A stretch of 64,000 nucleotides of DNA from Patescibacteria group bacterium (GTDB taxonomy: Bacteria; Patescibacteriota; Patescibacteriia; UBA10025; JAHIVO01): positions 1,008,048 to 1,072,047 of the forward strand of contig JBMOKY010000001.1 in the NCBI GenBank assembly GCA_049325535.1, written 5' to 3'. The notes below the pieces were generated by a model, which saw only the letters and a program-made list of their open reading frames with translations, was not told the origin of the DNA and searched no databases. Positions 6,863-58,635 of the stretch are shown piece after piece (the first letter of the stretch is position 1; each line of letters begins with the position of its first letter). A program made the translations under genes and the position numbers.

Positions 6863-6927
6863 CATATAAAAAATAAAGACCAAAAAAAACCTCACGCACC
6901 TTCACAATTTTATACAAGGAGAAAAAC

Positions 6928-7107
6928 ATGGAATCATTCATGACCTGCACACTCATGTCAGTGCAGACCATAGCCCAAGAGCTACAGCTGCCTGAAGATG
7001 TCATTACCCAACTCATCACTAAACTCACGGAGGTATCCAGCCAAAAATTCACGAACGATTCACTGTCCACGCCGTGTGCCAGCAATGGTTACGGCATGAT
7101 TCACTAA
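6928..7107 (+). CDS. Small hypothetical protein (59 aa), absent from the supplied ORF track (below the 60-aa cut-off)
   Basis: ATG at 6928 preceded by AAGGAG with a 7-nt spacer. Translates to MESFMTCTLMSVQTIAQELQLPEDVITQLITKLTEVSSQKFTNDSLSTPCASNGYGMIH with stop at 7105-7107. It lies immediately upstream of the 375-aa gene on the same strand. Confidence 0.45.
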   Translation: MESFMTCTLMSVQTIAQELQLPEDVITQLITKLTEVSSQKFTNDSLSTPCASNGYGMIH

Positions 7108-10495: not shown

Positions 10496-10499
10496 ATAT

Positions 10500-13771: not shown

Positions 13772-14430
13772 TCCGCGGCATTATTTTTGACATGGATGGG
13801 GTGGTTATAGATTCCGAACACCTCTGGGTAGAAGCGATACGGCAACAAATGGCCAAACGGAGCCTCGTTATCCCCCGCACTGCCGCCTACCAGCGCTATG
13901 TCAATCTCCATTTTCGCGGACGCAACCAGCGGCACGCGATATTGATGTGGAAACGATATTTCCATCTGGCAGAGCCGGCTAATGAGCTTATCCGGGAACG
14001 GGTCACGCTGCTGCTCAATATCTTCAAACAAAAATTACGCCCTATCCCGGGTATCCGTGGGCTACTCAATAAAACGCATCCCCGCTACCCGCTGGCATTG
14101 GCCTCGTCTTCCCCTCGTTCGGTAATCAGGTATGCACTGCGACGCGTCAACCTCCGGTCTTATTTTCAGTCGGTAATTTCTGGGGACGATTTCCACCACA
14201 GCAAACCAAATCCCGAAATTTTTCTCACCGCTGCCCGGCAGCTGCGCCTCCCGGCGCGCGACTGTCTGGTGATCGAGGATTCACTGAGCGGCGTACTGGC
14301 CGCCCACCGGGCCCGCATGCGCTGCATCGGCCTGAAACAGCCATACAATACCCGCCGGGATTTACAGACCGCGGACATTGTGGTACAACGATTATCTCAG
14401 ATAACGTTACCCCTGATACGTTCTCTATGA
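13768..14430 (+). CDS. HAD-superfamily hydrolase (beta-phosphoglucomutase-like subfamily IA)
   Basis: Motif I IIFDMDGVVIDSE. The 4-nt overlap with the upstream gene suggests an operon. Confidence 0.75.
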   Translation: MIRGIIFDMDGVVIDSEHLWVEAIRQQMAKRSLVIPRTAAYQRYVNLHFRGRNQRHAILMWKRYFHLAEPANELIRERVTLLLNIFKQKLRPIPGIRGLLNKTHPRYPLALASSSPRSVIRYALRRVNLRSYFQSVISGDDFHHSKPNPEIFLTAARQLRLPARDCLVIEDSLSGVLAAHRARMRCIGLKQPYNTRRDLQTADIVVQRLSQITLPLIRSL

Positions 14431-15218
14431 TCGGCATTTTTGATTCCGGCATCGGCGGTCTGACCGTCATCAAAGAATTACGCAAACAATTACCCGACTA
14501 CCAGCTGGTGTATTTTGGTGACACGGCCCGCACCCCATATGGAAACAAAAGCACCGACACCGTGATCCAATACGCCAAGGAAAATACTGAATTCTTGATT
14601 TCCCAAGGTGCTCAAATCATTGTCATTGCCTGCAATACCGCCTCTGCCGTAGCCACTGATGCTTTACGCGCCACCTATCCCCAGATACCCTTTTTTGAAG
14701 TGATCACCCCGGCTGCTGAAGCTGCGGCCAACCACTCCAAATCCGGCCGCATCGGCGTCATCGGCACCCGCACCACCATCAATAGCGACATCTACCAGAA
14801 AACGATCCAGAGCCACCGGCCAAAAATGTCCGTCACCAGCAAAGCCTGCCCCCTTTTCGTCCCACTCGCTGAGGAGGGATGGATCAATGATCAGATTACG
14901 AAGATTACCGCCCGACGCTATCTGGCCACCCTCAAACGTCATCAAATCGACACGCTCATCTTGGGCTGTACCCACTACCCCATCTTACGTAACGTCATCC
15001 AGCAAAAAATCGGCAAGCGCGTATTCTTGATTGACCCCGCTGTTCCGACCGTCGCCGCACTGCACCAATACCTTGCCGCTCACCCCGAGCTGGAGCAATC
15101 ATTGCCAAAAAATTCGAACCACCAATACTTCTTCAGCGATATCCCACCGCACATGACTGAGCTCACCCAGCGGTGGCTCGGGGAGTCGGTCAAACCACTG
15201 CTGCACCACATAAGCTGA
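14427..15218 (+). CDS. murI: Glutamate racemase
   Basis: MIGIFDSGIGGLTV, ACNTAS and GCTHYP motifs. Confidence 0.85.
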   Translation: MIGIFDSGIGGLTVIKELRKQLPDYQLVYFGDTARTPYGNKSTDTVIQYAKENTEFLISQGAQIIVIACNTASAVATDALRATYPQIPFFEVITPAAEAAANHSKSGRIGVIGTRTTINSDIYQKTIQSHRPKMSVTSKACPLFVPLAEEGWINDQITKITARRYLATLKRHQIDTLILGCTHYPILRNVIQQKIGKRVFLIDPAVPTVAALHQYLAAHPELEQSLPKNSNHQYFFSDIPPHMTELTQRWLGESVKPLLHHIS

Positions 15219-28540: not shown

Positions 28541-29857
28541 TTAGTGTAGTATGTCCCGTATTGCTTGTCTATCGTCCCAGGGTATGAGTCTCCCGCCCGA
28601 CACGGCCATCACGGTTTCGCTCCCCTTTCCGGTTACGAGTACGACGTCCCCCGCTTGAGCCAGTTTGAGAGCGGCAGACAGCGCCGCGCGGCGATCGGGA
28701 ATCGCCCAGCAATTTTGGTCTCGAATTTTTCCAGCCGTGATTACCCCAGCCATCACATCGTCAATGATATGTTGCGGATCCTCATCATACGGGTCTTCAT
28801 TGGTAACGATTACATAATCGGCATAGGTACCGGCCAATGTGCCCATCACCGGACGCTTTGCCCGATCCCGGCCACCACCCTGCGAACCCAATACCACTAT
28901 CAGGTGTTTGGCATGGAGCGGCTTCATCGCTCGGTACACGGACTCAAGCGAGGCTGGCTCATGAGCATAATCTACGAAGATGCGTATGCGACGCAAATTA
29001 CTGATCTCCTCGAGCCGTCCCGGAATCTGCACATTCTGCTCCACTGCCTCCCGTATTTGATTCCAGGAAATGCCGCAGGCCGCGCCGACACACGCCGCGG
29101 CAAGTATATTGTACACATTAAATGTCCCCAATAGCCATACGCGAAACAACTGATGATTGAGCACAAACTCGGTATGGTGAGCATACGCTGCCACTCGTTC
29201 AGCTATCACGTGCATATCACTCTGCTGTGGCACTGGCTGATCGGGTCGCAACGAATAGGTAAAGCGGCGATCGGCATCCGCGCTGAGGAATCGATCGGCT
29301 TCAGGGTCATCAGCATTGACGACAATCATTTTTGGAATTCGCTCACCTGCGATGACCTTGGTCGGCAATGTCGATAGCCGCTGAAAAAGCCTGAGCTTTG
29401 CATCACGATATCGTTCAAATGATCCGTGCGATTCGATGTGTTCAGGCGACAGATTGGTAAATACCGCCAGATCATAATCGATACCGACATGACGGAACTG
29501 CGCAATTCCCTCCGATGACGTCTCGACTACCACATAGCGGCAGCCGCACCAAACCATTTCCCGTAGCAATTGCTGCAAACGAAAACGGCCAGGCATCGTC
29601 TGCTTCGTCTGATTCACCCATTCTCGTGAACCGATTTTGAAATGCGTCGTGGCCACCACGCCAACGGTATTTCCTGCCTGCTCCAAGATACGACTGATCA
29701 GTGTCACGGTGGTCGATTTTCCTTTGGTACCGGTCACGCCAATAACAATCAAACGGCGCGAGGGATATCGGTACCACCAAGCGCCCATGCTTGCCAGACA
29801 CCAATGGTATGTCTGGAGTAAAAATTTCGGAATGAATTTCCTGATCAATCGTTTCAT
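28541..29857 (-). CDS. Mur ligase family protein (MurE/MurT-like)
   Basis: ATP-binding GVTGTKGKSTT plus Mur ligase middle and C-terminal domains. The start at complement 29855-29857 overlaps the cutA stop (ATGA). Confidence 0.7.
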   Translation of the reverse strand: MKRLIRKFIPKFLLQTYHWCLASMGAWWYRYPSRRLIVIGVTGTKGKSTTVTLISRILEQAGNTVGVVATTHFKIGSREWVNQTKQTMPGRFRLQQLLREMVWCGCRYVVVETSSEGIAQFRHVGIDYDLAVFTNLSPEHIESHGSFERYRDAKLRLFQRLSTLPTKVIAGERIPKMIVVNADDPEADRFLSADADRRFTYSLRPDQPVPQQSDMHVIAERVAAYAHHTEFVLNHQLFRVWLLGTFNVYNILAAACVGAACGISWNQIREAVEQNVQIPGRLEEISNLRRIRIFVDYAHEPASLESVYRAMKPLHAKHLIVVLGSQGGGRDRAKRPVMGTLAGTYADYVIVTNEDPYDEDPQHIIDDVMAGVITAGKIRDQNCWAIPDRRAALSAALKLAQAGDVVLVTGKGSETVMAVSGGRLIPWDDRQAIRDILH

Positions 29858-30165
29858 GGCAGTCGGGTTTGCTTCAATAACCACTGTTGATAGGGCGGAT
29901 AGACCCTGCCCACTGGTAACTCAAATATACAGGGAACTGCATCAGGGTGGTGCTGTTTGATGTATCGGGTTATAGCGATAAAATGTCGACGGTGAGTCTT
30001 GATTAAACTGGCGTATTCCCGATTTTTTTTTAATCTTCCCTGCCAATAGTACCAGGATTCCACCGGAAAAAAATTGACGCAGGCGGCCTGGCGCTGCTTG
30101 AGAAGCATGCCGCAAATTTTTTGAGCCTGCTTTTTCGTAGGATACGTGACGAAAATATCAATCAT
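29854..30165 (-). CDS. cutA: Divalent-cation tolerance protein CutA
   Basis: 103 aa with CutA1-like sequence throughout (DIFVTYPTKKQAQKI...CVNFFPVESWYYWQGRL...). Confidence 0.8.
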   Translation of the reverse strand: MIDIFVTYPTKKQAQKICGMLLKQRQAACVNFFPVESWYYWQGRLKKNREYASLIKTHRRHFIAITRYIKQHHPDAVPCIFELPVGRVYPPYQQWLLKQTRLP

Positions 30166-30642: not shown

Positions 30643-31803
30643 CTATCGCTTGAGCGCGTCGACACGATCCAGCTGTTCCCAAGGAAGCGACACGTCGACC
30701 CGGCCAAAATGACCATAAGCAGCCGTCTGCTCGTAGATAGGCCGCTTGAGATTGAGTACGCTAATAATGTCCGCTGGTTTCAGCGGGAAGTGCTCCTGGA
30801 CCAGGCGGATGACATCGCCATTCTCCAGAGTGCCTGTGCCAAACGTATTGACCATAATCGACACCGGCTCTGCCACGCCAATAGCATAAGCAAGCTGAAT
30901 CTCCACCCGCCGGGCGATCCCGGCCGCCACCAGATTTTTTGCGATGTACCGGGCAGCGTACGAAGCGCTCCGATCAACTTTTGAGACGTCCTTGCCGGAA
31001 AATGCGCCACCGCCGTGAGCCCCCACTCCGCCGTAGGTATCCACGATGATCTTCCGCCCGGTCAATCCGGTGTCGGCCGGGGGGCCGCCGAGCACAAACC
31101 GACCGGTGGCATTGATATGCAATCGTATCTGATCCGAATACAGATCCCCCAGCACTGGCCGTATCACCAGCTCAGTAATTTCTTTGCGAAGCTGGGAAGT
31201 GCTCACCGCTTCCGCATGTTGGGCGGCGATGACCACCGTATCGACTCGCTGGGGCCGATCATTTGCATATTCCACCGTCACCTGGGATTTACCGTCCGGC
31301 CGCAGGTACGGCAGCGTCCGATCTTTCCGCACATCGGCCAGCCGCTTGGTCAGTTGGTGTGCCAAGGCGATAGGTAATGGCATGTACTCCGGGGTCTCGT
31401 CACAGGCATACCCAAACATGAGCCCCTGGTCACCCGCACCCTGCTCCTTATCACCGCTCGCATCGACTCCCTGCGCGATATCCGGCGACTGCTCATGAAT
31501 AGTGCTCAATACCCCCACGTCATCGGCACAAAAGCCATACTCCGATTTATCATAACCGATCCGCCGAATAGTTCGCCGAACCACTTCCTGAATATTGACA
31601 TATCCGGTTGTCCGAACCTCGCCGCCTACCATGACCAATCCAGTGGTGGCAAAACACTCGACCGCCGAGCGAGATTCGGGGTCCTGACGGAGCATTTCAT
31701 CATACACCGCATCAGAGATCTGATCACACACTTTATCCGGATGACCCTCGGTGACCGACTCAGAAGTAAATAACCGTTTGTACGATGACATAAGTTCCTT
31801 CAT
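30643..31803 (-). CDS. metK: S-adenosylmethionine synthetase
   Basis: [18 protein letters not shown] and DTYGG motifs. Confidence 0.95.
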
Positions 31804-31958
31804 TTATGTAATAAAAATATCTCCGACCAAATATGGAGGAGATGTGAGTACTGCTACACTTATCTACCTACACGATTGGTAGCCGAGAATTAGCACCCGC
31901 CCGTGACGGGTTGCCGGGGAGTCACCGGGCTCGGTCCCTACTCCCACTCGTGATAAGC
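31804..31958 (-). ncRNA. SAM-I (S-box) riboswitch with an SD-sequestering expression platform, in the metK leader
   Basis: The minus-strand RNA reads CUUAUCACGAGUGGGAGUAGGGACCGAGCCCGGUGACUCCCCGGCAACC...GGUGCUAAUUCU...GUAGAUAAG. This matches the SAM-I consensus: P1 CUUAUC/GAUAAG, GGGA...GCCC...UGA...CCGGCAACC, and GGUGC.AAUUC. Downstream, AUCUCCUCC can pair with GGAGAU adjacent to the metK start. Confidence 0.8.
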
Positions 31959-32208
31959 TATTTGATTGTCAAAAGGTAGCGTCAGTATACGTAGCGCTCA
32001 TCTTCCCGTCAAGCGCTCCAAGCATTCGGCGTGATAGATGCGCCATGAATACATGAATAAGCGTGGTCCATGCGTACGCACAGAATTCCCCGATGACTGA
32101 CATGCGTTTAGCGGAATCGAGCCGAAGCAATGCGTTTGCCCGCATTCTTCCGGTGCTTCTTTTGCGCTACCTTTTTCTTCTTATTCATAATATATGACTA
32201 ATAATATG

Positions 32209-33428: not shown

Positions 33429-34142
33429 TTAACGCGTCTGCAAATACCGCTCAAACTGATCGATGTCATCGGGATTGCCGAAATCTATCCAGTACCCATC
33501 AATTTTTACGACCTTCACTTTTTTTTGCTGCGCAAGCGCCGTGATGGCATCGGTAATCTCATATTCGCCGCGGGATGACAATTGTACGCGGTCAATAATT
33601 TCAAAAATATCCTGGGTAAATTTATAAGCGCTTCCATTCACCAGATTGCCCATAAAGCTTTTTGGTTTTTCAACGATGCTCGTCAGTATGCCATCGGCAT
33701 CGGTGACGAGAACGCCTTTTGTCTCAGGGTGATCGGTCGTCTTCGCACCAACGTACGTATACGCATCATCGCGGATCAATTTCTGAATATCGGCAACCTC
33801 ATAAAAATTATCACCGGCGAGCGCCACGAATTGATCAGCCCCAATGATGTCCCGCACAACTTTTATCGGACAGGCTGTGCCATATTCTTTTTCACCGAGA
33901 ATCTTGAATTGATCCAGTACTCGGACGGGATAGGAAAGGGTAGCCACAAACCGCTCGATCTGTTCTGAAAAATACCCACTGACGATGGTAATATCGGTTA
34001 ATCCGGCAGCGCGAATTTGTTCGAGTAGGTAGTATAAAAAAGGCTTACCGGCAACCTCAATGAGGTGCTTGGGGCGATCCTGTGACAGATGTTTCATCCG
34101 GGTACCACGGCCGGCTGCTGAAATGACTACTTTCGATATCAT
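33429..34142 (-). CDS. Sugar-phosphate nucleotidyltransferase (NTP_transferase family)
   Basis: N-terminal AAGRGTRMKHLSQDRPKHLIEVAGKPFL, the signature of glucose-1-P thymidylyl/uridylyltransferase-like enzymes. Confidence 0.75.
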   Translation of the reverse strand: MISKVVISAAGRGTRMKHLSQDRPKHLIEVAGKPFLYYLLEQIRAAGLTDITIVSGYFSEQIERFVATLSYPVRVLDQFKILGEKEYGTACPIKVVRDIIGADQFVALAGDNFYEVADIQKLIRDDAYTYVGAKTTDHPETKGVLVTDADGILTSIVEKPKSFMGNLVNGSAYKFTQDIFEIIDRVQLSSRGEYEITDAITALAQQKKVKVVKIDGYWIDFGNPDDIDQFERYLQTR

Positions 34143-34146
34143 AGCC

Positions 34147-35175
34147 TCATGTACGAAATCGTCTGATGAATTTATATAGTGTATACCAGCCTGGCTTGAG
34201 TATCAAGTCCCGGGTGCCGGCGTAGCCGACGGGTACCCCGCCAAATCCTTGTTTGAAGCGCGTGATACCTTCCCAGCGCTCCTGGGTACCGGCAGCGGCC
34301 GAACCAACCCCCCAAAAGTCATACCAGCGCGCCCCGACCGATTGAGCATATTCTATCTGTTTCCATTGTAATAAATGAGGGGCCATCACATTACGAAATT
34401 CATTTGCCGACGCGCCATGAACATACGTCACCGTGTCACCGTAGTGCATCACGATATTCGCGGCGATAATTGATCCATGATACTCCGCCAGGAATAACCG
34501 CAGTGCCCCGGAAAAACCATACAGCTCAAACATAGTCTGGTAGTACCCCGCGTCATGCGCCACAAATGCATCTCGTGAAGCCGTCGTGGCCGTCAACCGG
34601 CAGAACGCCATGAGATCGTTTGCGCTGACGCCTTGGCGGATGGTCACGCCCTTACGTTCCGCCAGATGGATATTATAGCGTGTTTTTTGATGCAACTGCT
34701 CGGAAATTTGATGGCTTGTTTTGTCCAAAGGCAGCAGGATCGTATCTGACGGCTGGACATACCGGGCCGGCGCATGGCGCAACCCTCCCAGCACCTGCCG
34801 CGCCAGAAGCGGTGCGTCATCTCGGATCAACGGTGGTTCGATTTTGATAAACATCACATCCTTGGGGCGTGCCAACGCGCGTATCCCTGTCAACATCTCC
34901 CGCATCGCTGCCAATGCAGCGTCCCGATCCAGCGATGCCGATACTACCGGCCCCCGCGGTATATACCAATACCCCTGTTCCCCAGGCAATGCACGCTCCA
35001 GTACCTGTACGGCCGCCACCAGCCGGTTCCCATCACCCATACGATACCGCGAAACTGACCAGCCAGAGCGTTCCTGAAACGCCCCCCATTGCCAGGACTG
35101 TAAAAAAGGCGTGTGCGGCTGACTGGCCACAAACGATTCAAATAACTTTTGGTCGACGATTGGTCGTACTTCCAT
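34147..35175 (-). CDS. FemABX-family peptidoglycan aminoacyl transferase
   Basis: 342 aa; the N-terminal FLQSWQWGAFQ region and overall length resemble Fem/MurM lipid II aminoacyl transferases. Confidence 0.7.
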   Translation of the reverse strand: MEVRPIVDQKLFESFVASQPHTPFLQSWQWGAFQERSGWSVSRYRMGDGNRLVAAVQVLERALPGEQGYWYIPRGPVVSASLDRDAALAAMREMLTGIRALARPKDVMFIKIEPPLIRDDAPLLARQVLGGLRHAPARYVQPSDTILLPLDKTSHQISEQLHQKTRYNIHLAERKGVTIRQGVSANDLMAFCRLTATTASRDAFVAHDAGYYQTMFELYGFSGALRLFLAEYHGSIIAANIVMHYGDTVTYVHGASANEFRNVMAPHLLQWKQIEYAQSVGARWYDFWGVGSAAAGTQERWEGITRFKQGFGGVPVGYAGTRDLILKPGWYTLYKFIRRFRT

Positions 35176-41445: not shown

Positions 41446-42957
41446 CTAAATGCGAAGTTCCTTGCTCCAGCAGCCGGTGCAAAAATGCCGGGCGTCTTTC
41501 CCCGCTACTTTGAGCAAACCCTCAAGCGAAAGGTAGCGCAGACTGGAAACCCGCAGGTGTTCCCGTTCGATCTTCTCGATCGCCATGGTAGCGGCGATGA
41601 GATCACCCTTGGTTGCCATGTCGATGCCGTAGGGGCACCGTTCCACCACCGGCGGACAGCTGATCCGCACATGGATTTCCTTTGCCCCGGCGGCGCGCAG
41701 GGTCCGCACCAACCGTTGGATCGATGTGCCATAGACGATAGAGTCGTCCACCACCACGATCCGCGGCCGTTTGGTGAAGAGCGCGTGCATCGGCCGATAT
41801 TTGATCGAGGCGAGATGTTTCCGATTCGACAGTTCCGGACTGATGAATGTCCGGCTGACATACGGATTCCGCACCAGGCCGATACGGTAAGCCAGTCCGC
41901 TCTCATCGGCAAATCCGGCGGCGGCCAGATCCCCGGAGGCCGGAATGGAGATGACGCAATCGGCATCCGCGTCACCCATCGGATGTTCGGCGGCCAGCTG
42001 TTTGCCCAGACGGTAACGGAAACTGTTTACCTCCTCGGTCTGGTCCTCGAGGTAATCGAACCAGTAGTTCCCATTGTCCCACTGTACCATGATTTTATAG
42101 CACAGCGGGTTGCCATCAGTCGGCACGCGGAAGCGGCTGTCCGGACGCTGGAAATACACATATTCAAACAGGCAGAGGGCCCGCCGTTCCTCCGGCTCGA
42201 CCAGTTGCTGTCGCACGATCTGAGGATCGTGCAGATGCACCGTCAGCATTTCGCCCGGCAACACCTGATTGATACTCACCGTCCCGTCCTGGTGTCCTTC
42301 TTCGGCCCGATAGGTCAGGATGCCGTTGAGAGCGCAGTCCTCGGAGGCGAAGACGAAATAGTCGCCGACCGTCATGTAGAAGAGCGGCCGATTGGCAAAC
42401 CGATCACGGAACAGGTGAACCGTATCCCGAGTTGCCAGCCAGGAAGAAAATGATGCGCTGGAATGGAGCATCAAATGGCGGATGCCATCCTCCAGCCGGT
42501 CGAAATTATTGTCAGCATGGTAGAGGATATGCTGCACCAGCAATTCCGCATCATTCTGACTGTCGAAGACCAGGCCCTGCTCCTCCAGCTCACGACGCGC
42601 TTCGGCATAATGGCGATGATCACCATTACTCCCCAGCGCGATAGTACCTCTGCCCGGACGCAAAAACTGCGGCTGGGCATTGCGCTTGGTGCTTCTGCCC
42701 TGGGTAGAAAAGCGCCCCTGCAAACACATGAGTTGCGGAGTATCGGCCCGGAGGCTCTGATACACTTCCCGGTTACCGAACGCGGATTCAAACAGGCCTG
42801 CCTGTTTGTAGACTCTGAGGATTCGTCCGTCGGAATGGGCAAACCCCAGCCATTCGTGCCCCCGGTGCTGCAAATCACCGCCAAGAATGGCGACCAATTT
42901 CATCACTTCATCGGGGTCGACGGTTTTCATGGGAATGACGCCGCCAATAGAACACAT
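41446..42957 (-). CDS. purF: Amidophosphoribosyltransferase-like protein (class II glutamine amidotransferase Ntn domain + PRTase domain)
   Basis: N-terminal MCSIGGV (catalytic Cys2) and the PRPP-binding motif VVDDSIVYGTS. Confidence 0.7.
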   Translation of the reverse strand: MCSIGGVIPMKTVDPDEVMKLVAILGGDLQHRGHEWLGFAHSDGRILRVYKQAGLFESAFGNREVYQSLRADTPQLMCLQGRFSTQGRSTKRNAQPQFLRPGRGTIALGSNGDHRHYAEARRELEEQGLVFDSQNDAELLVQHILYHADNNFDRLEDGIRHLMLHSSASFSSWLATRDTVHLFRDRFANRPLFYMTVGDYFVFASEDCALNGILTYRAEEGHQDGTVSINQVLPGEMLTVHLHDPQIVRQQLVEPEERRALCLFEYVYFQRPDSRFRVPTDGNPLCYKIMVQWDNGNYWFDYLEDQTEEVNSFRYRLGKQLAAEHPMGDADADCVISIPASGDLAAAGFADESGLAYRIGLVRNPYVSRTFISPELSNRKHLASIKYRPMHALFTKRPRIVVVDDSIVYGTSIQRLVRTLRAAGAKEIHVRISCPPVVERCPYGIDMATKGDLIAATMAIEKIEREHLRVSSLRYLSLEGLLKVAGKDARHFCTGCWSKELRI

Positions 42958-43098
42958 ACCAAACTCCCTTCGTATCGGGGTTATATTGTTTACGAACTAT
43001 TATTGTTTTTCTTTTGAGAGAAGGGGTTATCTTACACTACTCGTCAAACAACTGTCAAAAAGTTATTGCGACATGGTATACTCACCCCACTGCCTATG

Positions 43099-44028
43099 AA
43101 AAAAGTACTCGTCACCGGAACATTTGACCTCCTCCATCCCGGCCACTACCGACTGTTACAATCGGCCAAGCGTCTGGGGGATTTTTTGACGGTGGTCATC
43201 GCCCGTGACGAGACGGTCAAGCGCGTCAAAGGATACAATCCTTTCTTCACCCAAGCCGATCGGGTACAAAACATGCGCGCACTCGGCATCGCCCACCGGG
43301 TCATCCCCGGCGGCAGCGGCGATAAATTGTCAGTCATTGCCTCCGAACGGCCTGATATCATCTGTCTGGGGTACGACCAGCATGCCTTTACCGATGACCT
43401 CGAGAAAAAGCTAACTGCCCGTGGCTTCACCCCGCGCATCGTCCGCATCCGTCGATTTAGCGCTGGTATGTTCCGCACCGGCGGATTGCATGCCGCTGGA
43501 TTAGTGGCCCTGCATCGTACTGATCCGACACTGGTTATCGAACCGCGCTATGCCACCGCCCGGAATTTCACCGGTCAACGGCTATACCACAACCGTATTA
43601 TTCTGGGACGAACGCATGTGGCGCGTATGGTGAAGCGCGCGCAAACCGTCTTGCGCCGCCAAGGATACGGACTCAAGATTTGGGATTGTTACCGGCCGTT
43701 ATCCGTACAAAAAATCCTCTGGTGCCATCTGCCGGATGAGCGCTATGTCGGCAATCCAAAAAAAGGGCCGGTGCATACGCGTGGCACCGGTGTGGACTGC
43801 ACCCTAGTGGACCGGCGCGGACGCCCATTACCCATGCCCACGAAGTACGACGAATTTTCAGATCGAGCGCATCGTCAGCATCCCCCGCATCCGACGACCG
43901 GATGGCGGCACTCCCGCATCCTCGAACAAGCTATGACCCGTGCCGGATTCGAGGCGTTGCCCACCGAATGGTGGCATTTTTCTGATCCCCGGTGGAAACA
44001 ATACCCGGTTATCGATATCGCCATCTGA
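43099..44028 (+). CDS. Two-domain fusion: cytidylyltransferase-like HxGH nucleotidyltransferase domain + VanX/DdpX-type D-Ala-D-Ala dipeptidase (M15D) domain
   Basis: N-terminal MKKVLVTGTFDLLHPGHYRLL (HxGH nucleotide-binding motif, ~130 aa). The C-terminal half carries VHTRGTGVDC (SxHxxGxAxD-like) and EWWHFSD, the Zn-ligand and catalytic motifs of VanX-family dipeptidases. The longest ORF starts at 43066. Confidence 0.65.
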   Translation, partial: KKVLVTGTFDLLHPGHYRLLQSAKRLGDFLTVVIARDETVKRVKGYNPFFTQADRVQNMRALGIAHRVIPGGSGDKLSVIASERPDIICLGYDQHAFTDDLEKKLTARGFTPRIVRIRRFSAGMFRTGGLHAAGLVALHRTDPTLVIEPRYATARNFTGQRLYHNRIILGRTHVARMVKRAQTVLRRQGYGLKIWDCYRPLSVQKILWCHLPDERYVGNPKKGPVHTRGTGVDCTLVDRRGRPLPMPTKYDEFSDRAHRQHPPHPTTGWRHSRILEQAMTRAGFEALPTEWWHFSDPRWKQYPVIDIAI

Positions 44029-44098: not shown

Positions 44099-44359
44099 AT
44101 GCCCATCAAGCACGCCTCAGCCAAACATCTACGTCAAACCGTCCGCCGAACCTCCCGCAACCACGCGGTCATCGCCAAATTACGCTCTCTGATCAAGACA
44201 GCGCGTAAAGCAATCGCCGCCAAGGACAAAGAAAAAGCCCAGGCAGCAGTACGTGCCGCTGCTACGGCAATCGATAAGGCCGCGCAAAATAAAGTGATGA
44301 AAAAAAACACCGCCAGCCGGTATAAATCACGCCTGACAACCGCCCTCAACAAAATCTAA
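44099..44359 (+). CDS. rpsT: 30S ribosomal protein S20
   Basis: MPIKHASAKHLRQTVRRTSRNHA... is highly basic and alpha-helical with rpsT length and sequence. Confidence 0.9.
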   Translation: MPIKHASAKHLRQTVRRTSRNHAVIAKLRSLIKTARKAIAAKDKEKAQAAVRAAATAIDKAAQNKVMKKNTASRYKSRLTTALNKI

Positions 44360-45339
44360 GCACGAGCGGTACCGAGTCGCGTCACCAACAGGTCAAACAT
44401 GAGCTGCGGATTTTGTGATGATGTCTTCAGGGCGATATCAGTATCCAGCAGCATGCCATATACCATTTTCAACTCATCAATTTTGTACCGGCGTATATCC
44501 CGTACTGCTTTTTGTACCACGAATGGATGCAGCCCCAGCCGCCGGGCGATGGTGGCCGGATGCGGTTCGGTTTCGGCCAATGACCGCACTTGGAGTAAAA
44601 TGCGGAACTGGCGGATGACCATGGTCAGTATATAAAGCGGGGCGGCGCCGGAAGCAAATTGATCATGGAGTAATCGCACCGTCGTTTTCGTGTCACGCGC
44701 CGCTAATGCATCGGATAAATGAAATATATTTTCATCATAGGCCGCGCGGACCATCTGCCGAACATCCGCCGCACGAATCAACTGTCCGGCTCGGTAATTG
44801 ATGAGTTTTTCTATCTCGGCGGCCATTTCCCAGAGATCACTGCCGATCAGTCCCGCCATTTCCCCCACCGCCGACGACTCAATCCGTCCGCCCCGCCGCC
44901 GTACCTCCTGCTGGATCCATGTGGTCAGCTGCACGCCCGTGAGAAGCGGGAATGACTCCACAGTCGCTTCCTTATCCAGAAAAACAGCCAGCGGATGGGC
45001 GCTCTTCCTACCCCGGCCACGTCCCGTATCGACTTCTTCCTCGACACAGATAATAACCGCGTCGCCAGTATATTCTCCAGTGAGATAGTCGACGATAGCT
45101 GGTCCCAATTGCTTACTTTTATTTTTTGTGATGACGTTTTCGATGACCACCAGCCGTTTTGTCGCTAGAAATCCGACCTGCCCAATCGCCTGGCGCAGCG
45201 CTTCCAGAGTCAATTTCTCCCCATCAAGCACCGTAGTATTATACCCCTGCGGATCATATTTTTTTCTAAATCCAGCCTGATAATACTGCAACCGCTGGCG
45301 CAGACGGTACGTGTCGGGTCCATGGAGATACATAATCAT
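44356..45339 (-). CDS. holA: DNA polymerase III subunit delta
   Basis: 327 aa. An N-terminal clamp-loader delta-like domain with conserved leucine-rich helices. Its start overlaps the polA stop. Confidence 0.75.
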   Translation of the reverse strand: MIMYLHGPDTYRLRQRLQYYQAGFRKKYDPQGYNTTVLDGEKLTLEALRQAIGQVGFLATKRLVVIENVITKNKSKQLGPAIVDYLTGEYTGDAVIICVEEEVDTGRGRGRKSAHPLAVFLDKEATVESFPLLTGVQLTTWIQQEVRRRGGRIESSAVGEMAGLIGSDLWEMAAEIEKLINYRAGQLIRAADVRQMVRAAYDENIFHLSDALAARDTKTTVRLLHDQFASGAAPLYILTMVIRQFRILLQVRSLAETEPHPATIARRLGLHPFVVQKAVRDIRRYKIDELKMVYGMLLDTDIALKTSSQNPQLMFDLLVTRLGTARA

Positions 45340-48128
45340 AGTACAATCGGCATTAATGTTCCCCAGGTATCTCCCGCTTCTACCTCGGTCACGATCGGCA
45401 CGCGCAACGTATAAGCGCCATTCATCTGCTCGGCCACAAAAGCCGCCACCTTTTGCACCTCCATTTCAGGTACTTCAAACACTAGCTCGTCATGCACCTG
45501 TAATATCATCCGGGTTTGCGGACTGACGCTGGGCAGCTGGCGATGGATATTGATCATGGCTACTTTCAGGAGATCAGCTGCCGTACCCTGGATCGGCATA
45601 TTGACGGCCATACGTTCCGCCGCCGCCCGCACCTGGGGCATAGAAGCGTTGATATCCGGGAGATACCGTCGCCGGCCAAACAACGTCTCCACATATCCCT
45701 GCTCGTGCGCCAGGGCGATCGTCGCGGCGATGTACTCCTGGATTTCCGGATGTACCATAAAATATTTTTCGATAAACGCCCGGGCCCGGTCACGCGACAT
45801 ACCCTGCCGCGAGGCCAATCCCCAGGCACCCATACCGTACAGGATGCCAAAATTTACCTCTTTTGCTTCATAGCGCTGTTGTTTGGTGACCTGCTCCAGC
45901 GGGATTTGATTGACATCTGCGGCAGTACGGCGATGTATGTCCTCGCCGCGCCGGAATGCGTCGATCATCTTTTCGTCTCCGGCGATCGAGGCGACGATCC
46001 TGAGTTCTATCTGTGAATAATCCGCCGCCAGTATCCGATAACCGGGCTCAGCGATGAATGCCCGGCGGATCTGTGCTCCGGTCTCCGTGCGAATCGGTAT
46101 GTTCTGCAAATTTGGATCCGATGATGACAGCCGCCCGGTAGCGGTTACTGCCTGATTGAAACTGGTATGCACTCGTTTGGTCTTTGGATTGACCAATACC
46201 GGGAGCGCGTCGAGATAGGTTGATTTCAATTTGGACAGCTCGCGGTACTCCTGCAGCAGGACAATAATCGGATGCTTGTCCTTCAGTTTTTCCAGCTGGG
46301 CTGCGGCGGTCGATAGGCCGGTTTTGGTCTTGCCGATGCCCTCAGTACTGATATGCAGGCGCTCAAACAGCACCTCCTTCAGCTGGAGCGGGGAATTGAT
46401 ATTGAATTCAACGCCGGCCATGTCATATATTTTTTTTTCCAAAGTCCCGATCGTGGTGCCAGTTTTTTGAGACAGCGTATTTAAAAAAGCTGTATCAATT
46501 TTCACGCCATTTTGTTCCAGCGTAGCCAGGACCGGAATGAGCGGTACCTCCAGTTTGTCCATCAAACCAGACATATTTTTTTCCTCCAGCTCACTGGTAA
46601 AATGCTGATACAGTTGCCAGGTGTATTCCGCGTCTTCCGCGGCGTACCAGGCGATCCGATCGACGGGCACCATATCCATGGAAATCTGCTGTTTGCCTTT
46701 GCCGATGAGGTCAGTTATCGGCTCCATTTCATATCCAAAAATTTCAAAAGCGAGATTATCCAGGCTGTGCCCCCGCGAACCAGGATTCAGTAAATAGGAG
46801 GCGACCATGCTATCAAATGCAATCGGATGTAGATTGATGCCCACCTGCCAGAGCATGGCCAGATCATACTTGATGTTGTGTCCCACTTTTTTTATGGTGG
46901 GATGTTCCAGCAATAATTTCAATTGCGGGAGCCACTCCGCATGGTCGGCCACGTGCATATAATACGCCGTGCCAGACTGCCAGCAGAGGCTGACCCCGAG
47001 CAGTCGGGCGCGAAATGGATCGACGCTGGTGGATTCGGTATCCACCGCCAATACCGGCTGTCGCATGGCCGCCGCCATACAGTCAGCAAACTGTGCGCCG
47101 GTCTGAATATGGATGTATTGCGATGGGGAGGTTCGCGGCACCGTCGAGGGTATGTTCGCCGATTCCGGACGCGGAGCGACTGTAGTATTTTTTGGAATCA
47201 CCGATTCGGCATTCAGCGCATCACTTGTGGACACACTGACATCCGGCAGACGATTGAGCAGGCTCTTAAATTCCAGCTCCTGAAACAGGGAAAATACAGC
47301 CTGCCGGTCATACGGCCGTAAAGCGCAATCGTCCGGTGAGTATGTGATAGGCACGTCGCGCACGATGGTCGCCAGCCGCTTGCTCATCATTGCCTCCTTT
47401 TCTTGCTTCTGCAGGAGCGCCAAATTTCGTTTTTTGATATCCGCCGTTTTGCCGGCGGCGATAGCTTGATATATCTTTTCTACTGATTCAAACCGCCGTA
47501 ATAATTCCGTCGCCCCCTTATCACCGATGCCTTTGACCCCGGGAATATTATCAGACGGATCGCCGGCGATTGCTTTCAGGTCAATCATCTGGATGGGATC
47601 CAGGCCGTATGTATCCCGGAACGCCGCCGTATCATACGTCACCGTATCGGCAATGCCCTTGCGGAGGGTATGCACCACGGTATGCTCATCAATCAGCTGA
47701 AAGGCGTCCTTGTCTCCGGTGACGATGATATTTTCGATCCCAGCCGTTTCATTTTCCCGGGCAATAGTACCGATCACGTCATCCGCTTCAAAACCATCAA
47801 TCTCATAGACCGGAATCTGAAAAGCGGCGAGTATAGCTTTGACAATAGGAATCTGGGTATAAAATTCATCCGGGGTTTCTGCCCGTCCGGCCTTGTACTC
47901 CGCATATTCCTCGTGGCGGAATGTTTTTTTGGCCTTATCAAAAGCCACCGCGATATGCGTCGGTTTAAATTCCTTCAGCACTTTAAATAACACTGAGGTA
48001 AACCCGTACACCGCATTCACCATCTGCCCGCTCTTGGTGGTCAGGGTCGGTGGCAACGCATGGAAACTCCGGTGCAGAAGCGCATTGGCATCGATTATGA
48101 CGGCTTTTTGTCGTTTGACGGCTGACAT
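45336..48128 (-). CDS. polA: DNA polymerase I (5'-3' exonuclease, 3'-5' exonuclease and polymerase domains)
   Basis: 930 aa. N-terminal FEN-like domain, a central exonuclease-like domain, and C-terminal family A polymerase motifs A/B/C (DYSQIELR, RRxAKxxNFGxxYG, HDE). Confidence 0.95.
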   Translation of the reverse strand: MSAVKRQKAVIIDANALLHRSFHALPPTLTTKSGQMVNAVYGFTSVLFKVLKEFKPTHIAVAFDKAKKTFRHEEYAEYKAGRAETPDEFYTQIPIVKAILAAFQIPVYEIDGFEADDVIGTIARENETAGIENIIVTGDKDAFQLIDEHTVVHTLRKGIADTVTYDTAAFRDTYGLDPIQMIDLKAIAGDPSDNIPGVKGIGDKGATELLRRFESVEKIYQAIAAGKTADIKKRNLALLQKQEKEAMMSKRLATIVRDVPITYSPDDCALRPYDRQAVFSLFQELEFKSLLNRLPDVSVSTSDALNAESVIPKNTTVAPRPESANIPSTVPRTSPSQYIHIQTGAQFADCMAAAMRQPVLAVDTESTSVDPFRARLLGVSLCWQSGTAYYMHVADHAEWLPQLKLLLEHPTIKKVGHNIKYDLAMLWQVGINLHPIAFDSMVASYLLNPGSRGHSLDNLAFEIFGYEMEPITDLIGKGKQQISMDMVPVDRIAWYAAEDAEYTWQLYQHFTSELEEKNMSGLMDKLEVPLIPVLATLEQNGVKIDTAFLNTLSQKTGTTIGTLEKKIYDMAGVEFNINSPLQLKEVLFERLHISTEGIGKTKTGLSTAAAQLEKLKDKHPIIVLLQEYRELSKLKSTYLDALPVLVNPKTKRVHTSFNQAVTATGRLSSSDPNLQNIPIRTETGAQIRRAFIAEPGYRILAADYSQIELRIVASIAGDEKMIDAFRRGEDIHRRTAADVNQIPLEQVTKQQRYEAKEVNFGILYGMGAWGLASRQGMSRDRARAFIEKYFMVHPEIQEYIAATIALAHEQGYVETLFGRRRYLPDINASMPQVRAAAERMAVNMPIQGTAADLLKVAMINIHRQLPSVSPQTRMILQVHDELVFEVPEMEVQKVAAFVAEQMNGAYTLRVPIVTEVEAGDTWGTLMPIVL

Positions 48129-53034: not shown

Positions 53035-55185
53035 TCAATCGGAGCGTCGCCGCTGCTGCCGCTCCCGGATCACATAGGCAGCGATGCCCGCGCCGATAGC
53101 TACCGCCGCTCCAATCAAATAATACACCACCGCTCGCTGTCCGGCCGGCGCTGGCACGACTACCGACGGCTGATCCGTACTGGCACCCAACACGTCTCCG
53201 GTCGATACGGCGATGGATGAGGGAATAGATATGTCGTCCTGAGTGCGGGGCAATAAACGCAAGCCGGCGCTCGTCTTATCCAATACCCCAGTGACGGTAA
53301 CCAGATCGCCCGGATTGAGTTCCGGTTGAACGATACCCGTCTTGGCCTGAATATATACGCGGAGGACATTGCCATCCTCATCCATCAAATAAATCCCCCG
53401 ACTATTTGCCCGATCCACGGTGCCGGTCACCTGCAGCAGCTGACCGATCATCTCGTCCGTCACCTCGCCAATGCCAACCTGGCGGAGTTCCAGTGATGCG
53501 GTGGAGACGTCAGTGCCCATGCCCTCCGCGTCCTCAGCGGGTGGCACTATTTCATTTTCCGCGCCCGGCGTCAGCACCTCGGTCCACTCCCACCGGCCAT
53601 CGGCAAACGCAAACGCATAGTCCTTTGGTGCCTTGGGAATGGTAACGCCGTGAATGATAGTGCCGGCTGGATCAACCAGATATAATTGTTCACCGGAATT
53701 GTTCAGGGTTATCTTGCTTTCCACCCGCTCAACCACCAGAAAAGCGCCAGCTGGGACCGTGCTATCATCACCAAATGTAAAATATCGCGATCCATCCGTC
53801 AGCTGCCACCCATCGAGCGATACGTCCCTGTCGCCGCTGTTATGCAGTTCAATAAACTCGCACACACTATCGCTCGGCATACAGCTGGGCAATACTTCGG
53901 AAATGATGATGGCATCGGAATAATCATAGTCCGAAACAATAATGTCCGTCCGTGTCATGTGTGTTGCGCCGTGCTCATCGGTCACCGTCAACGACACGCG
54001 AAACGCGCCAGCCCGTGTGTACGCATGGGTGGGCTTCTTTTCCGCTGACGTCTGGCCATCGCCAAAATCCCAGGCATAAATCAGTTCATCCGCATCACTA
54101 TCATTGCTTTCTCCACCATCGAAGGTGATATCATGGCGGACTTTTACTTCTGTGGCTGATGCCTGTATCACCGCTTCGGGAGGAGTATTGGAAATGATAT
54201 GTCGGTTTACTGCTCCGGGAGTCATTGCGTCAGTCCATTGCCATACATCCCCAATCAAACTATACGATTGCCCCTCATGAGAACCAGTATACGCTACACT
54301 CTCTACCTCGGTATTGTCCGGCCAGTACAATCGGACAGAGTCGGCGGTATTGTTGAGTGCAATGCCAGTGAGAGATTTAGGTAATACCAGATAGGATAGT
54401 GCCGCGATGGTTGGATTACTTATCGCATATCGCCGCGAACTATTGTCTCCAATTTTCCATCCAGTCAAATCGACTGCCACGGTACCGCGATTAAATAATT
54501 CGATGAATTCAGTGTCATCAGTACCCACCGGGTCCGGGAGAAATTCAGAAATGCATACGGTCGTGGCATATGCGATCGGTTCGTCATCAGCCGTCGCATC
54601 CGCCACAGGTACATATGAAGTATTATGGGGCTGGGGAACATCGAGGGTGGAAAAATCAGCGGCATTATTGTCAGTATCGATGCCGTCGGTACGCACAATA
54701 CTTTTATTGCTCCCCGGGTTCGCTGCCGGCGCTGATTCAGCGTGCGTAGCAGAACCAAACCCCACCAGATCGACAATACCGCCATCGGCATCAATCAACT
54801 CCACAGAGTTATTATCGGCCATCGAGTTGCCGCTCGAATAGGTAATATCAGGCTCGGCCGTGCCGAGATAACCAGTAGGATGCGTGATGAGAAAATAATG
54901 CCCTGGCGGAATAATCATGCCTGTAAATGAGTCAACCAGTACATACGCCGTACCACTGCTCGTCCGCTTCACCATTGACCATCCATCCAGAACAACATCG
55001 CTGCCGGTCGGATTATAGAGCTCGATAAATTCGTTGGTGCTCTGTCCACTCGATCCGCTCACCATTACTTGGTTAATAACTACATGGGTAGTTTCAGCTG
55101 CCATTAATCTGCTAGGCATTGCCAGAAATAATAAGAGAAATAAGGCGAGACGGGACTTGAAAGGTTGAAAGGATAAATAGTTCAT
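53035..55185 (-). CDS. Cell-surface protein with three lamin-tail (LTD) domains and a PKD domain, C-terminal TM anchor
   Basis: Signal peptide, then three LTD signatures (NEFIELYNPTGSDVVLDGW; TEFIELFNRGTVAVDLTGW; CEFIELHNSGDRDVSLDGW). A PKD-like block follows (WDFGDGQTSAEKKPTHAYTRAGAFRVSLTVTDEHG). The C-terminal TM is VVYYLIGAAVAIGAGIAAYVI followed by a basic tail. Confidence 0.7.
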   Translation of the reverse strand: MNYLSFQPFKSRLALFLLLFLAMPSRLMAAETTHVVINQVMVSGSSGQSTNEFIELYNPTGSDVVLDGWSMVKRTSSGTAYVLVDSFTGMIIPPGHYFLITHPTGYLGTAEPDITYSSGNSMADNNSVELIDADGGIVDLVGFGSATHAESAPAANPGSNKSIVRTDGIDTDNNAADFSTLDVPQPHNTSYVPVADATADDEPIAYATTVCISEFLPDPVGTDDTEFIELFNRGTVAVDLTGWKIGDNSSRRYAISNPTIAALSYLVLPKSLTGIALNNTADSVRLYWPDNTEVESVAYTGSHEGQSYSLIGDVWQWTDAMTPGAVNRHIISNTPPEAVIQASATEVKVRHDITFDGGESNDSDADELIYAWDFGDGQTSAEKKPTHAYTRAGAFRVSLTVTDEHGATHMTRTDIIVSDYDYSDAIIISEVLPSCMPSDSVCEFIELHNSGDRDVSLDGWQLTDGSRYFTFGDDSTVPAGAFLVVERVESKITLNNSGEQLYLVDPAGTIIHGVTIPKAPKDYAFAFADGRWEWTEVLTPGAENEIVPPAEDAEGMGTDVSTASLELRQVGIGEVTDEMIGQLLQVTGTVDRANSRGIYLMDEDGNVLRVYIQAKTGIVQPELNPGDLVTVTGVLDKTSAGLRLLPRTQDDISIPSSIAVSTGDVLGASTDQPSVVVPAPAGQRAVVYYLIGAAVAIGAGIAAYVIRERQQRRRSD

Positions 55186-55200
55186 ATGAGGACAAGAAAA

Positions 55201-55593
55201 CTATTCGTTTCTTTTTAATTCAAGGGAGTAGATTAAACGGTCAAATAAGTACATGGTTTTCATGGCGAGGGCATTAAAGGCGTCATATTCCTCTTCAGTT
55301 ATATACCCCTTTCGTAATAGCCGGCGTATGCGCTCATTTACCTCACCCAGAGAGCGCCGGCCATACCGAAGGAATCGAATGTAATCACCGATCGTACCGC
55401 TGTAGTACCCTTCCACAAAATTTGCACCTACACTATCCGAAGCGCTATCTATCTGACTCCGCATTTTGTATTCATTACGAGGGACGTGCTGTAAAATCTT
55501 TTGCACAGAAAAATCAAGTTGATCTATATTCTTCCATACTATCATCCGCTGGTGCCCCGCTATCCGTGTCCCCTGCTTCCCCTCTTCGGCCAT
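55201..55593 (-). CDS. Four-helix-bundle protein (23S rRNA intervening-sequence protein family)
   Basis: QIDSASDSVGANFVEGYY and the overall 130-aa helical layout match the IVS-protein / four-helix-bundle family. Confidence 0.65.
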   Translation of the reverse strand: MAEEGKQGTRIAGHQRMIVWKNIDQLDFSVQKILQHVPRNEYKMRSQIDSASDSVGANFVEGYYSGTIGDYIRFLRYGRRSLGEVNERIRRLLRKGYITEEEYDAFNALAMKTMYLFDRLIYSLELKRNE

Positions 55594-57870: not shown

Positions 57871-58635
57871 TTATGGGCACCATGTGCGCCCGGTTGGCGA
57901 GGAAACTGGAATGTTCCAGGAGGAATACTGGTAGTTGACTACGATGCTTCTATATCCTGAAATGCCGGTCAGGGGCTGAGATACTCCGTTCTTGTAGATT
58001 ACGAAGTGGATATGCGGAAAAGCGGGGAGCCCGCGTTCCGGACCAGTCCAGCCAGTCGCACCAGCGTTTCCGATTATTGTCCCCTGCAGCAGATCGTCAC
58101 CTTCGTGCACGAAGTATTGTGGATCGCAGTTCAAATGGGCGACGACTGACTCCCATCCATTCCCATGATCCATTCTGACATACCAGCCAAGCGAACTACT
58201 CCATCGTGCATATTTAAAAATGCCCCTGGCGGGAGCAAGCACCCTACGGCCAGTAGTCGAACCATCCATCCGGACTAAATCAACAGCATGGTAATTGTTC
58301 CCCTGGTGGTATCCCACACCATATCCGCTGATTATTTTCCAGTACTCCGGGCCATAGAAATAATACGTACCAGCCCATGGCCACTTAAAATCGTACATAC
58401 TAGAAGGCCACGTTGCTGCTCCTGCCGCTGCAGTCACCGCTCCACGCCCCTTCCCGTCATCGACAGCGGTCGAATCAATGTCAGGGCCCGGCCCCTTGTT
58501 CAGGTCAGCAGGTTCGGTCGGTGTGGGGCTGTTGGTACAGCTGGTGATGAGAGCGGAAGATCCGATTGCCAGCGCAGTGAAGAGCACCAGCAGTGCGAAA
58601 AACTTCAGGTATTTCACGGGAAATACTCCTTTCAA
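57871..58635 (-). CDS. M23-family peptidoglycan peptidase, predicted lipoprotein
   Basis: Lipobox LITSC after the signal peptide. M23 metal-ligand motifs VRMDHGNGWESVVAHL (HxxxD) and PHIHFVIY (HxH). Confidence 0.75.
   Translation of the reverse strand: MKGVFPVKYLKFFALLVLFTALAIGSSALITSCTNSPTPTEPADLNKGPGPDIDSTAVDDGKGRGAVTAAAGAATWPSSMYDFKWPWAGTYYFYGPEYWKIISGYGVGYHQGNNYHAVDLVRMDGSTTGRRVLAPARGIFKYARWSSSLGWYVRMDHGNGWESVVAHLNCDPQYFVHEGDDLLQGTIIGNAGATGWTGPERGLPAFPHIHFVIYKNGVSQPLTGISGYRSIVVNYQYSSWNIPVSSPTGRTWCP

Follow-up and report, generated by a model that had tools for sequence, protein, structure and literature searches.

What does a single chain do that carries an HxGH nucleotidyltransferase in its first half and a VanX/DdpX-type D-alanyl-D-alanine (D-Ala-D-Ala) dipeptidase in its second, and is such a chain real? 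The question is raised by a gene at positions 43096..44028 of a 64,000-nucleotide stretch from a Patescibacteria group bacterium (contig JBMOKY010000001.1 of assembly GCA_049325535.1, positions 1,008,048 to 1,072,047 of the forward strand), which we call the window. Each half of the product belongs to a known family, and it is the combination that is new as an architecture. An original prediction, made from the nucleotide sequence, proposed that the two halves could couple nucleotide-activated precursor chemistry to D-Ala-D-Ala cleavage. We think it fairly probable instead that the gene encodes a lineage-specific bifunctional flavin adenine dinucleotide (FAD) synthase and cytoplasmic D-Ala-D-Ala dipeptidase, whose predicted activities, on their predicted substrates, would be independent of each other.

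A continuous gene with a narrow distribution

The plus-strand frame is open from position 43066 (TTG) or 43096 (ATG) to the stop at 44028 and contains no internal stop codons. The start first proposed, 43099, is the second codon; the ATG lies one codon before it, at 43096-43098. There the 310-amino-acid product (310 codons plus stop) begins, with MKKVLVTGTFDLLHPGHY as its first residues, and orthologues start with MKKVL in the alignment. A database protein from a Patescibacteria group bacterium metagenome-assembled genome (MAG), P0001, is 100% identical to this product. All features of the gene given below lie on the plus strand.

The prediction that both domains stand on one chain was borne out. 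In the numbering of a 309-residue query without Met1, Pfam places PF01467 (CTP_transf_like) at residues 5-115 (E-value 4.7e-14; 53.2 bits, cut-off 21) and PF01427 (Peptidase_M15) at residues 132-297 (E-value 2.3e-31; 109.6 bits, cut-off 27; profile positions 2-185 of 199). Both matches are far above chance level. The motifs from which the domains had been recognized are all present: HPGH at residues 14-17 (43135..43146), HTRGTGVD at 227-234 (43774..43797) and EWWH at 291-294 (43966..43977). A frameshift or stop near residues 130-150, which would have separated two genes, is absent. The frame is continuous there, and 27 clusters besides P0001 have the same fused layout, at 46-81% identity and mostly with about 310 amino acids.

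The architecture had also been called unusual, and a look for it in related genomes had been suggested; it proved to be rare and to recur there. Among approximately 5.8 billion clusters at 90% identity it occurs in 28 (P0001-P0028), drawn from NCBI, JGI, ENA and Logan; nearly all are 309-331 amino acids long, with 46-100% identity to the window protein. An exhaustive HMMER search of 1.84 billion representatives at 50% identity returned 12,920 matches, with P0023 alone matching over its full length. Two others, P0267 and P0330, were considered as further fusions of PF01467 with M15 because their matches reached toward the N-terminal domain, but their N-terminal domains differ and they were rejected. 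When one genome per GTDB species (185,579 species) was searched by tblastn, an uninterrupted match to the fusion was found in 11 species (L005-L015). No genome was found in which the two parts are adjacent separate genes. Database names of the fusions are generic, either 'M15 family metallopeptidase' or 'adenylyltransferase/cytidyltransferase family protein', and our literature searches returned no description of a PF01467+M15 fusion and none of DdpX in Patescibacteria.

The named sources of the fusion clusters are Patescibacteria, Parcubacteria or Candidatus Kerfeldbacteria. Nine of the 11 GTDB species bear the label Patescibacteria, Parcubacteria or just 'bacterium', and the other two are co-assembly bins labelled Gammaproteobacteria, with the same synteny. 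In these two loci, L009 (CAZBNI010000004.1) and L011 (CAYPXF010000023.1), both labelled 'uncultured Gammaproteobacteria bacterium', PolA is 65-67% identical to that of the window, and the flanks have the synteny typical of Patescibacteria (purF-like, rpsT, holA and polA, with uvrB additionally in L009). The Gammaproteobacteria labels are probably wrong, and the carriers are apparently all Patescibacteria MAGs. The architecture is real and restricted to this lineage and, as far as we checked, undescribed in the literature searched.

The C-terminal domain

Residues 133-310 (43492..44025) form the M15 domain. The NCBIfam DdpX model PRK10178 (NF007557) aligns over positions 6-178 of 188 and scores 151 bits, with a cut-off of 176, and the VanX model (NF033115) scores 65 bits, with a cut-off of 320. 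The VanX structure 1r44 is matched at an E-value of 1.2e-15 by sequence and is the top match of a Foldseek search (1r44_A, E-value 2.7e-16, template modelling (TM) score 0.73 relative to the target). Standalone proteins of about 200 amino acids that are annotated as D-alanyl-D-alanine dipeptidases, from many phyla, are 45-53% identical to the domain.

The catalytic machinery can be followed residue by residue. Arg71 of VanX is its transition-state arginine. The zinc ligands of that enzyme are His116, Asp123 and His184, and Glu181 is its catalytic base (bioRxiv 10.1101/2023.10.13.562161). By alignment to 1r44, Arg200, which lies in a YRP motif at residues 199-201 (43690..43698), corresponds to Arg71; His227 and Asp234, at either end of HTRGTGVD, to His116 and Asp123; and Glu291 and His294, which bound EWWH, to Glu181 and His184. 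None of the five varies among 19 aligned fusions, and they are 96-100% conserved when the 28 fusions are taken together with 55 standalone homologues, and the YRP motif is invariant in fusions and standalone homologues. The motifs YAT-x-x-NF, WD-x-YRP and MP-x-x-x-D-x-F are likewise invariant and are common to VanX and DdpX. In profile, in zinc ligands, catalytic glutamate and arginine, and in fold, the domain thus has every feature of MEROPS subfamily M15D that could be tested, with the sole exception of the NCBI equivalog score. From these sequence features we infer that it is a zinc D-Ala-D-Ala dipeptidase of the DdpX/VanX type.

The comparison with Escherichia coli DdpX and Enterococcus VanX (M15D, PF01427; both cytoplasmic) is instructive in both directions. 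Fold, zinc ligands, catalytic glutamate and arginine are alike, as is the absence of a signal peptide, which follows here from a chain that opens with the first strand of a Rossmann fold. The window domain differs in being fused behind another enzyme rather than forming a single-domain protein of about 190-200 amino acids, in scoring below the equivalog cut-offs, in having an altered loop before the first zinc histidine in its own subclade, and in standing between a purF-like gene and rpsT rather than in a van or ddp operon.

Fusion as such is common for this module. DdpX-type M15 domains were also found joined to a YkuD L,D-transpeptidase, to AmiA-like, C39-like and Phosphodiest domains and to a second M15 domain, with PF01467 in none of these. 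These combinations show that the dipeptidase module is mobile and frequently acquires partner domains. Its other partners are mostly cell-wall enzymes, whereas the RibL-type partner is a cytoplasmic cofactor enzyme. Among the other fusions, P0330 (485 amino acids, metagenomic) carries a PF01663 Type I phosphodiesterase/nucleotide pyrophosphatase domain followed by Peptidase_M15. YkuD+M15 fusions and tandem double M15 proteins recur (P0031, P0039, P0055, P0058, P0087, P0090, P0095, P0103, P0109 and P0119; P0029, P0030 and P0253), and P0029-P0031 have hydrophobic, signal-peptide-like N-termini. Their numbers suggest that L,D-transpeptidation and D-Ala-D-Ala cleavage are commonly paired outside the cytoplasm.

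The N-terminal domain

Residues 1-132 (43096..43491) form the HxGH nucleotidyltransferase domain. By sequence, its best solved relative is 3glv at an E-value of 1.2e-23, 13 orders of magnitude ahead of the next structure; TagD reaches 3.3e-10 and HldC 1.5e-7. In the fold search, the AlphaFold model superimposes on 3glv with a TM score of 0.90 and 1.9 Å root-mean-square deviation over 122 residues, at 41% identity. The two have in common the motifs TG-FD-LH-GH, VVVARD and PDII-LGYDQ. The entry is a structural-genomics deposition from Thermoplasma volcanium under the name 'lipopolysaccharide core biosynthesis protein', an old and automatic name for a RibL-like sequence; unlike the window domain, it is a single-domain archaeal protein, and it is uncharacterized.

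A search with the N-terminal domain only brought up standalone homologues of 129-165 amino acids at 40-57% identity, from Patescibacteria, Nanoarchaeota and methanogens. In JGI they are named 'FAD synthetase', one in NCBI is 'FAD synthase [Methanotrichaceae]', and most others have the generic name of the adenylyltransferase/cytidyltransferase family. The nucleotide-binding motif HPGH keeps both its histidines in all of 19 aligned orthologues, and they are 100% conserved among 50 standalone homologues. Wherever at least 85% of the standalone RibL-like proteins agree on a residue, the fusions retain it.

One feature of archaeal RibL is missing. The two C-terminal cysteines associated with its air sensitivity do not occur in the fusion, where FRTGGLH or YK(S/T)S occupies the spot. 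In the window protein this motif, FRTGGLH, spans residues 126-132 (43471..43491); it was located by motif scan and comparison with archaeal proteins and by the model helix at 128-133. The archaeal motif C-x-x-C-S-S occurs in 50 of 120 standalone matches and the cysteine pair in none of six inspected sequences of Patescibacteria/DPANN type; at this position the fusion and those sequences have (Y/F)(K/R)(S/T)(S/G). The pair is not required for activity, since the archaeal-type FAD synthase of Entamoeba histolytica (EhFADS) also lacks it and yet is experimentally active and ATP-specific (PMC11423594).

With respect to archaeal RibL (Methanocaldococcus jannaschii MJ1179) and EhFADS, the domain is alike as a small HxGH nucleotidyltransferase of about 130-150 amino acids; it shares with EhFADS the loss of both cysteines, differs from archaeal RibL in having (Y/F)(K/R)(S/T)(S/G) instead of C-x-x-C-S-S, and is 40-49% identical to proteins annotated as FAD synthetase or synthase. 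It differs from both in its bacterial (Patescibacteria) host, in the M15 enzyme at its C-terminus and in that its FAD synthase role is predicted. All RibL-type features that could be tested (PF01467, an intact HxGH and the closest subfamily) are present, apart from the cysteine pair. We infer a cysteine-less RibL-type (archaeal-type) flavin mononucleotide (FMN) adenylyltransferase (FAD synthase, EC 2.7.7.2), by way of annotated homologues. Of the earlier description, both domain identifications hold; by sequence, fold and names the N-terminal domain is closest to RibL-type FAD synthases and not to glycerol-3-phosphate cytidylyltransferase.

Fusions of FMN adenylyltransferases have precedents. 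Bacterial RibF, a riboflavin kinase/FMN adenylyltransferase, is alike in being an HxGH-superfamily FMN adenylyltransferase fused to a second module, and in plant FADS the second module is an inactivated FAD pyrophosphatase (PMC9678776). Both of those partners come from the flavin pathway itself, whereas the partner here, a cell-wall dipeptidase, has no known link to flavins.

The domain junction

The AlphaFold model of the whole chain, computed from an alignment of 133 sequences, has a mean predicted local distance difference test (pLDDT) score of 95.9 and a predicted TM (pTM) score of 0.90. In the model, the last helix of the N-terminal domain (residues 128-133, over the motif at 126-132) is followed directly by the first strand of the M15 domain (136-138), leaving a linker near zero. 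Standalone orthologues terminate 4-12 residues past the same C-terminal motif. Among the fold-search matches there was no solved chain that spans both domains. The confident model of the whole chain argues for a fixed, compact arrangement instead of beads on a string.

The locus and its history

The gene occupies a conserved slot. Upstream and divergent lies a glutamine amidotransferase/PurF-like gene (41446..42957, minus strand; Pfam GATase_6/7), which is found in most of the fusion and standalone loci that we fetched. Downstream is rpsT for ribosomal protein S20 (44099..44359, plus strand; recognized by tblastn synteny, orthologues PF01649), and beyond it, identified by synteny, the flank with holA (DNA polymerase III delta) and polA (44356..48128, minus strand). 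The order uvrB, purF-like, [gene], rpsT, holA, polA recurs in the loci that we fetched, fusion and standalone alike, over the part of it that each covers, with uvrB upstream and holA and polA downstream; these neighbours are unrelated to cell wall or flavins.

In sister genomes the same slot is filled by a standalone ribL-like gene of 134-138 amino acids (P0122, P0125 and P0128; loci L001-L004, gene at 6001-6417 in each), so that the N-terminal domain is orthologous to a resident gene with a single domain. In the 12-kb standalone loci fetched, neither an M15 gene nor, by tblastn, a remnant of one was found. For the relatives seen, this led us to reject an origin by fusion of two neighbouring operon genes. 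One standalone locus, L004, has a 189-amino-acid open reading frame (ORF) without a Pfam match at 6443-7012 (minus strand), between the ribL-like gene and rpsT, where fusion genomes hold the M15 domain; tblastn found no similarity of this ORF to M15. A standalone patescibacterial M15 gene (L084) lies between dnaK/dnaJ and a recombinase gene, a position that is uninformative.

We used distance-based trees to follow the two parts. When the 28 fusions were compared with their 90 best standalone relatives, the fusion M15 domains formed one clade in 47 of 50 bootstraps; the standalone proteins nearest to them belong to other phyla, Calditrichota being one. Because the fusion M15 domains are monophyletic, the module was gained once. 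In a tree of PolA and HolA (1,008 columns), for which the flanking genes served as markers of the genomes, standalone genomes nest among fusion genomes. A split of standalone from fusion genomes appeared in none of 200 bootstraps, and the deepest branch (L010, L013) bears the fusion. This nesting indicates that M15 was later lost at least once. The neighbour-joining tree of the N-terminal domain (130 amino acids) was poorly resolved and did not place the fusions, so that the C-terminal domain and PolA+HolA trees were used instead. Most simply, M15 was gained in frame once, passed on vertically and then lost at least once, probably twice. Across the genomes compared, the RibL-like part was never lost in the lineage.

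Fusion seems to have left the older half as it was. The N-terminal domain of the window protein is about 52% identical to standalone orthologues and 44-63% identical to other fusions. Since it is as similar to the one group as to the other, the evolutionary constraints on the domain appear unchanged by fusion.

Weighing the alternatives

In the reading we favour, the cytoplasmic protein would unite two enzymes, each complete, and hardly any linker would separate them. Residues 1-132 would convert FMN and adenosine triphosphate (ATP) into FAD and would be the ancestral, indispensable part, whereas residues 133-310 would cleave D-Ala-D-Ala into two D-alanines as an accessory part that can be dispensed with. 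The ribL-like gene would be a resident housekeeping gene in its fixed slot between the purF-like gene and rpsT, to whose 3' end the M15 module was joined in frame once; the fusion was then inherited vertically, and the module was dropped in some descendants. The dipeptidase may recover D-Ala or alanine when wall material is scavenged, or may control the D-Ala-D-Ala pool. Survival and precursor-control roles are those classically discussed for DdpX and VanX. That the organism makes peptidoglycan is indicated by the MurI-like, Mur ligase and FemAB genes of the window, and a need for flavins is suggested by its gene for a PyrK-like oxidoreductase and by the presence of the flavoenzymes MurB and TrxB in Parcubacteria (PMC4508563).

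Several observations weigh against this reading. The C-terminal domain misses the DdpX equivalog cut-off (151 against 176 bits) and is by the NCBI threshold DdpX-like and not an equivalog. In the window's subclade, the sequence of the loop before the first zinc histidine and residues 169, 171 and 296 have changed, so that substrate specificity may have shifted. The RibL assignment draws on automatically named proteins and an uncharacterized structural-genomics entry, and not on the characterized MJ1179. Finally, the near-zero linker, the confident compact model and retention of the fusion down to 46% identity exceed what a purely neutral fusion needs, which leaves a small probability of functional or structural interplay between the halves.

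The changes in the loop and at residues 169, 171 and 296 lead to the strongest alternative, which we consider unlikely: that the M15 domain, at least in the window's subclade, is still a zinc peptidase but acts on another D-amino-acid dipeptide or on a muropeptide fragment. Standalone DdpX-like homologues have a near-invariant G-S-R-H-N-R-G in the loop. Clusters P0001-P0016 have G-P-(V/F/Y)-H-T-R-(G/A) there (G-P-V-H-T-R-G in the window protein), and have replaced Cys169 by Ile, Leu171 by Thr or Gly, and Asp296 by Ser. These residues, loop included, are 96-100% conserved in the 55 standalone DdpX-like proteins, and the score below the DdpX equivalog cut-off points the same way. Against a shift stand the catalytic set and the motifs YAT-x-x-NF, WD-x-YRP and MP-x-x-x-D-x-F, which are all invariant. 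The second fusion subclade, P0018-P0028, retains S-x-H-N-R-G, and VanX itself has S-S-H-S-R-G, so the loop varies among true D-Ala-D-Ala dipeptidases and evidently tolerates substitution.

A different identity for the N-terminal domain is rather improbable. It could be a TagD-like cytidylyltransferase or another non-flavin type (HldE domain II, archaeal PPAT) that makes a precursor of a wall polymer activated by cytidine or adenosine diphosphate (CDP or ADP), the link to D-Ala then running through D-alanylated polymers of the teichoic-acid type. The domain belongs to the same Pfam family as these enzymes, and TagD, HldC and choline/ethanolamine cytidylyltransferase structures are among its fold matches. 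There are also weak matches to NCBIfam models, but none of those for TagD, RfaE/HldE domain II, PPAT, NMNAT and RibF comes near its cut-off: TIGR01518 (TagD) reaches 47.8 bits against 165.4, TIGR02199 (RfaE domain II) 58 against 181, PPAT models stay below 104, and RibF models match weakly at E-values of about 1e-5 to 0.05. On these scores and on those against solved structures we ruled out a TagD, HldE or PPAT identity. The sequence match, TM score and identity to 3glv are far better, the long motif PDII-LGYDQ is in common with that protein, and the closest homologues with specific names are FAD synthetases or FAD synthases.

That the chain is a functionally coupled enzyme we hold to be very improbable. 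The nucleotidyltransferase would then act on, or be controlled by, a substrate or product of the dipeptidase, as a new editing step of peptidoglycan precursors; it might, for example, adenylate D-Ala or a precursor that contains it, or the binding of nucleotide or flavin and the hydrolysis of D-Ala-D-Ala might influence each other allosterically. The absence of a linker in a confident compact two-domain model speaks for this idea, as does a fusion kept with both active sites intact down to 46% identity. The HIGH-motif superfamily includes the carboxylate-adenylating pantothenate synthetase, which was a weak structural match (1iho), and P0330 is another fusion of a nucleotide enzyme with M15. 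On the other side, the orthologous N-terminal domain stands alone at the same locus in sister genomes, without M15 in the fetched loci; M15 was lost at least once and the N-terminal domain retained; and the fused N-terminal domain neither diverges faster than its standalone orthologues nor has altered conserved residues. Nor do FMN/FAD chemistry and D-Ala-D-Ala hydrolysis have intermediates in common, and known PF01467 members transfer nucleoside monophosphates to phosphate groups, not to amino acids. The coupling of nucleotide-activated precursor chemistry to D-Ala-D-Ala cleavage in the original prediction accordingly found no support. The domain to which that chemistry was ascribed is closest to RibL-type FAD synthases and exists on its own in sister genomes; M15, after a single gain, disappeared again from some lineages, none of which gave up the RibL-like part; and FMN adenylylation and dipeptide hydrolysis share neither substrate nor product.

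If anything slimmer is the chance that the rigid, linker-less union is not accidental and that the active sites cooperate, through hydrolysis controlled by nucleotide or flavin or through nucleotidylation of a D-Ala-containing compound. If true, this would be a previously unknown step by which cofactor or nucleotide status acts on peptidoglycan precursor supply in epibiotic bacteria.

An artefact, in which a sequencing frameshift or lost stop in one assembly merged two neighbouring genes, has in its favour solely the prior that odd fusions in MAGs sometimes are artefacts, and we dismiss it as next to impossible: nothing interrupts the ORF, and its many orthologues fill 28 clusters drawn from independent assemblies and sources and occur in 11 GTDB species genomes, each with a single uninterrupted tblastn match.

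Other features of the window

Near the gene there are no relevant RNA elements or tRNAs, the Rfam and tRNA matches lying elsewhere in the window, and promoter and terminator counts are at the level of shuffled sequence. No ribK, ribF, ddl, alr, vanH/vanA or dadA was found in the 64 kb, which otherwise bears general housekeeping genes and cell-wall genes. The latter lie dispersed over the window and comprise the MurI-like Asp/Glu racemase (14427-15218, plus strand), the Mur ligase (28541-29884, minus strand), an NTP_transferase gene adjoining the FemAB-family peptidyltransferase (33429-35175, minus strand) and an M23 peptidase (57871-58635, minus strand). A PyrK-like oxidoreductase is also encoded.

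Several other loci of the window were noted. An S-adenosylmethionine (SAM, S-box) riboswitch at 31857-31959 (minus strand; 56.6 bits, gathering threshold 44.4) lies directly upstream of metK for S-adenosylmethionine synthetase (30643-31803, minus strand). The 581-amino-acid product of 8891-10636 (minus strand) combines Radical_SAM and Radical_SAM_C with a C-terminal GNAT acetyltransferase domain, an Elp3-like architecture that characterizes archaea and eukaryotes and is seldom found in bacteria. At 53035-55185 (minus strand), a 716-amino-acid protein with three lamin-tail domains and a PKD domain is probably a surface protein; beside its gene lies a short one (55201-55593, minus strand) whose product belongs to the '23S rRNA intervening sequence protein' family.

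Implications

The fusion offers a clean natural case of domain gain and loss at a fixed locus in streamlined genomes. A side result is probably more useful than the fusion itself, namely a predicted archaeal-type FAD synthase in a conserved housekeeping locus of Patescibacteria. RibL orthologues have been stated to be absent from Bacteria (PMC5397151), and in Parcubacteria ribF/ribKL were reported missing although the flavoenzymes MurB and TrxB are present (PMC4508563). The closest relatives of the lineage's cysteine-less ribL-like gene (L001-L004; 43096-43491 in the window) include Nanoarchaeota proteins. A cysteine-less RibL-type enzyme in common with DPANN archaea would help to close the gap in FAD synthesis of Parcubacteria. 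The DdpX-type domain, for its part, would indicate that D-Ala-D-Ala is hydrolysed in the cytoplasm of some wall-bearing, host-dependent cells, and may thus bear on the supply and balance of their D-alanine.

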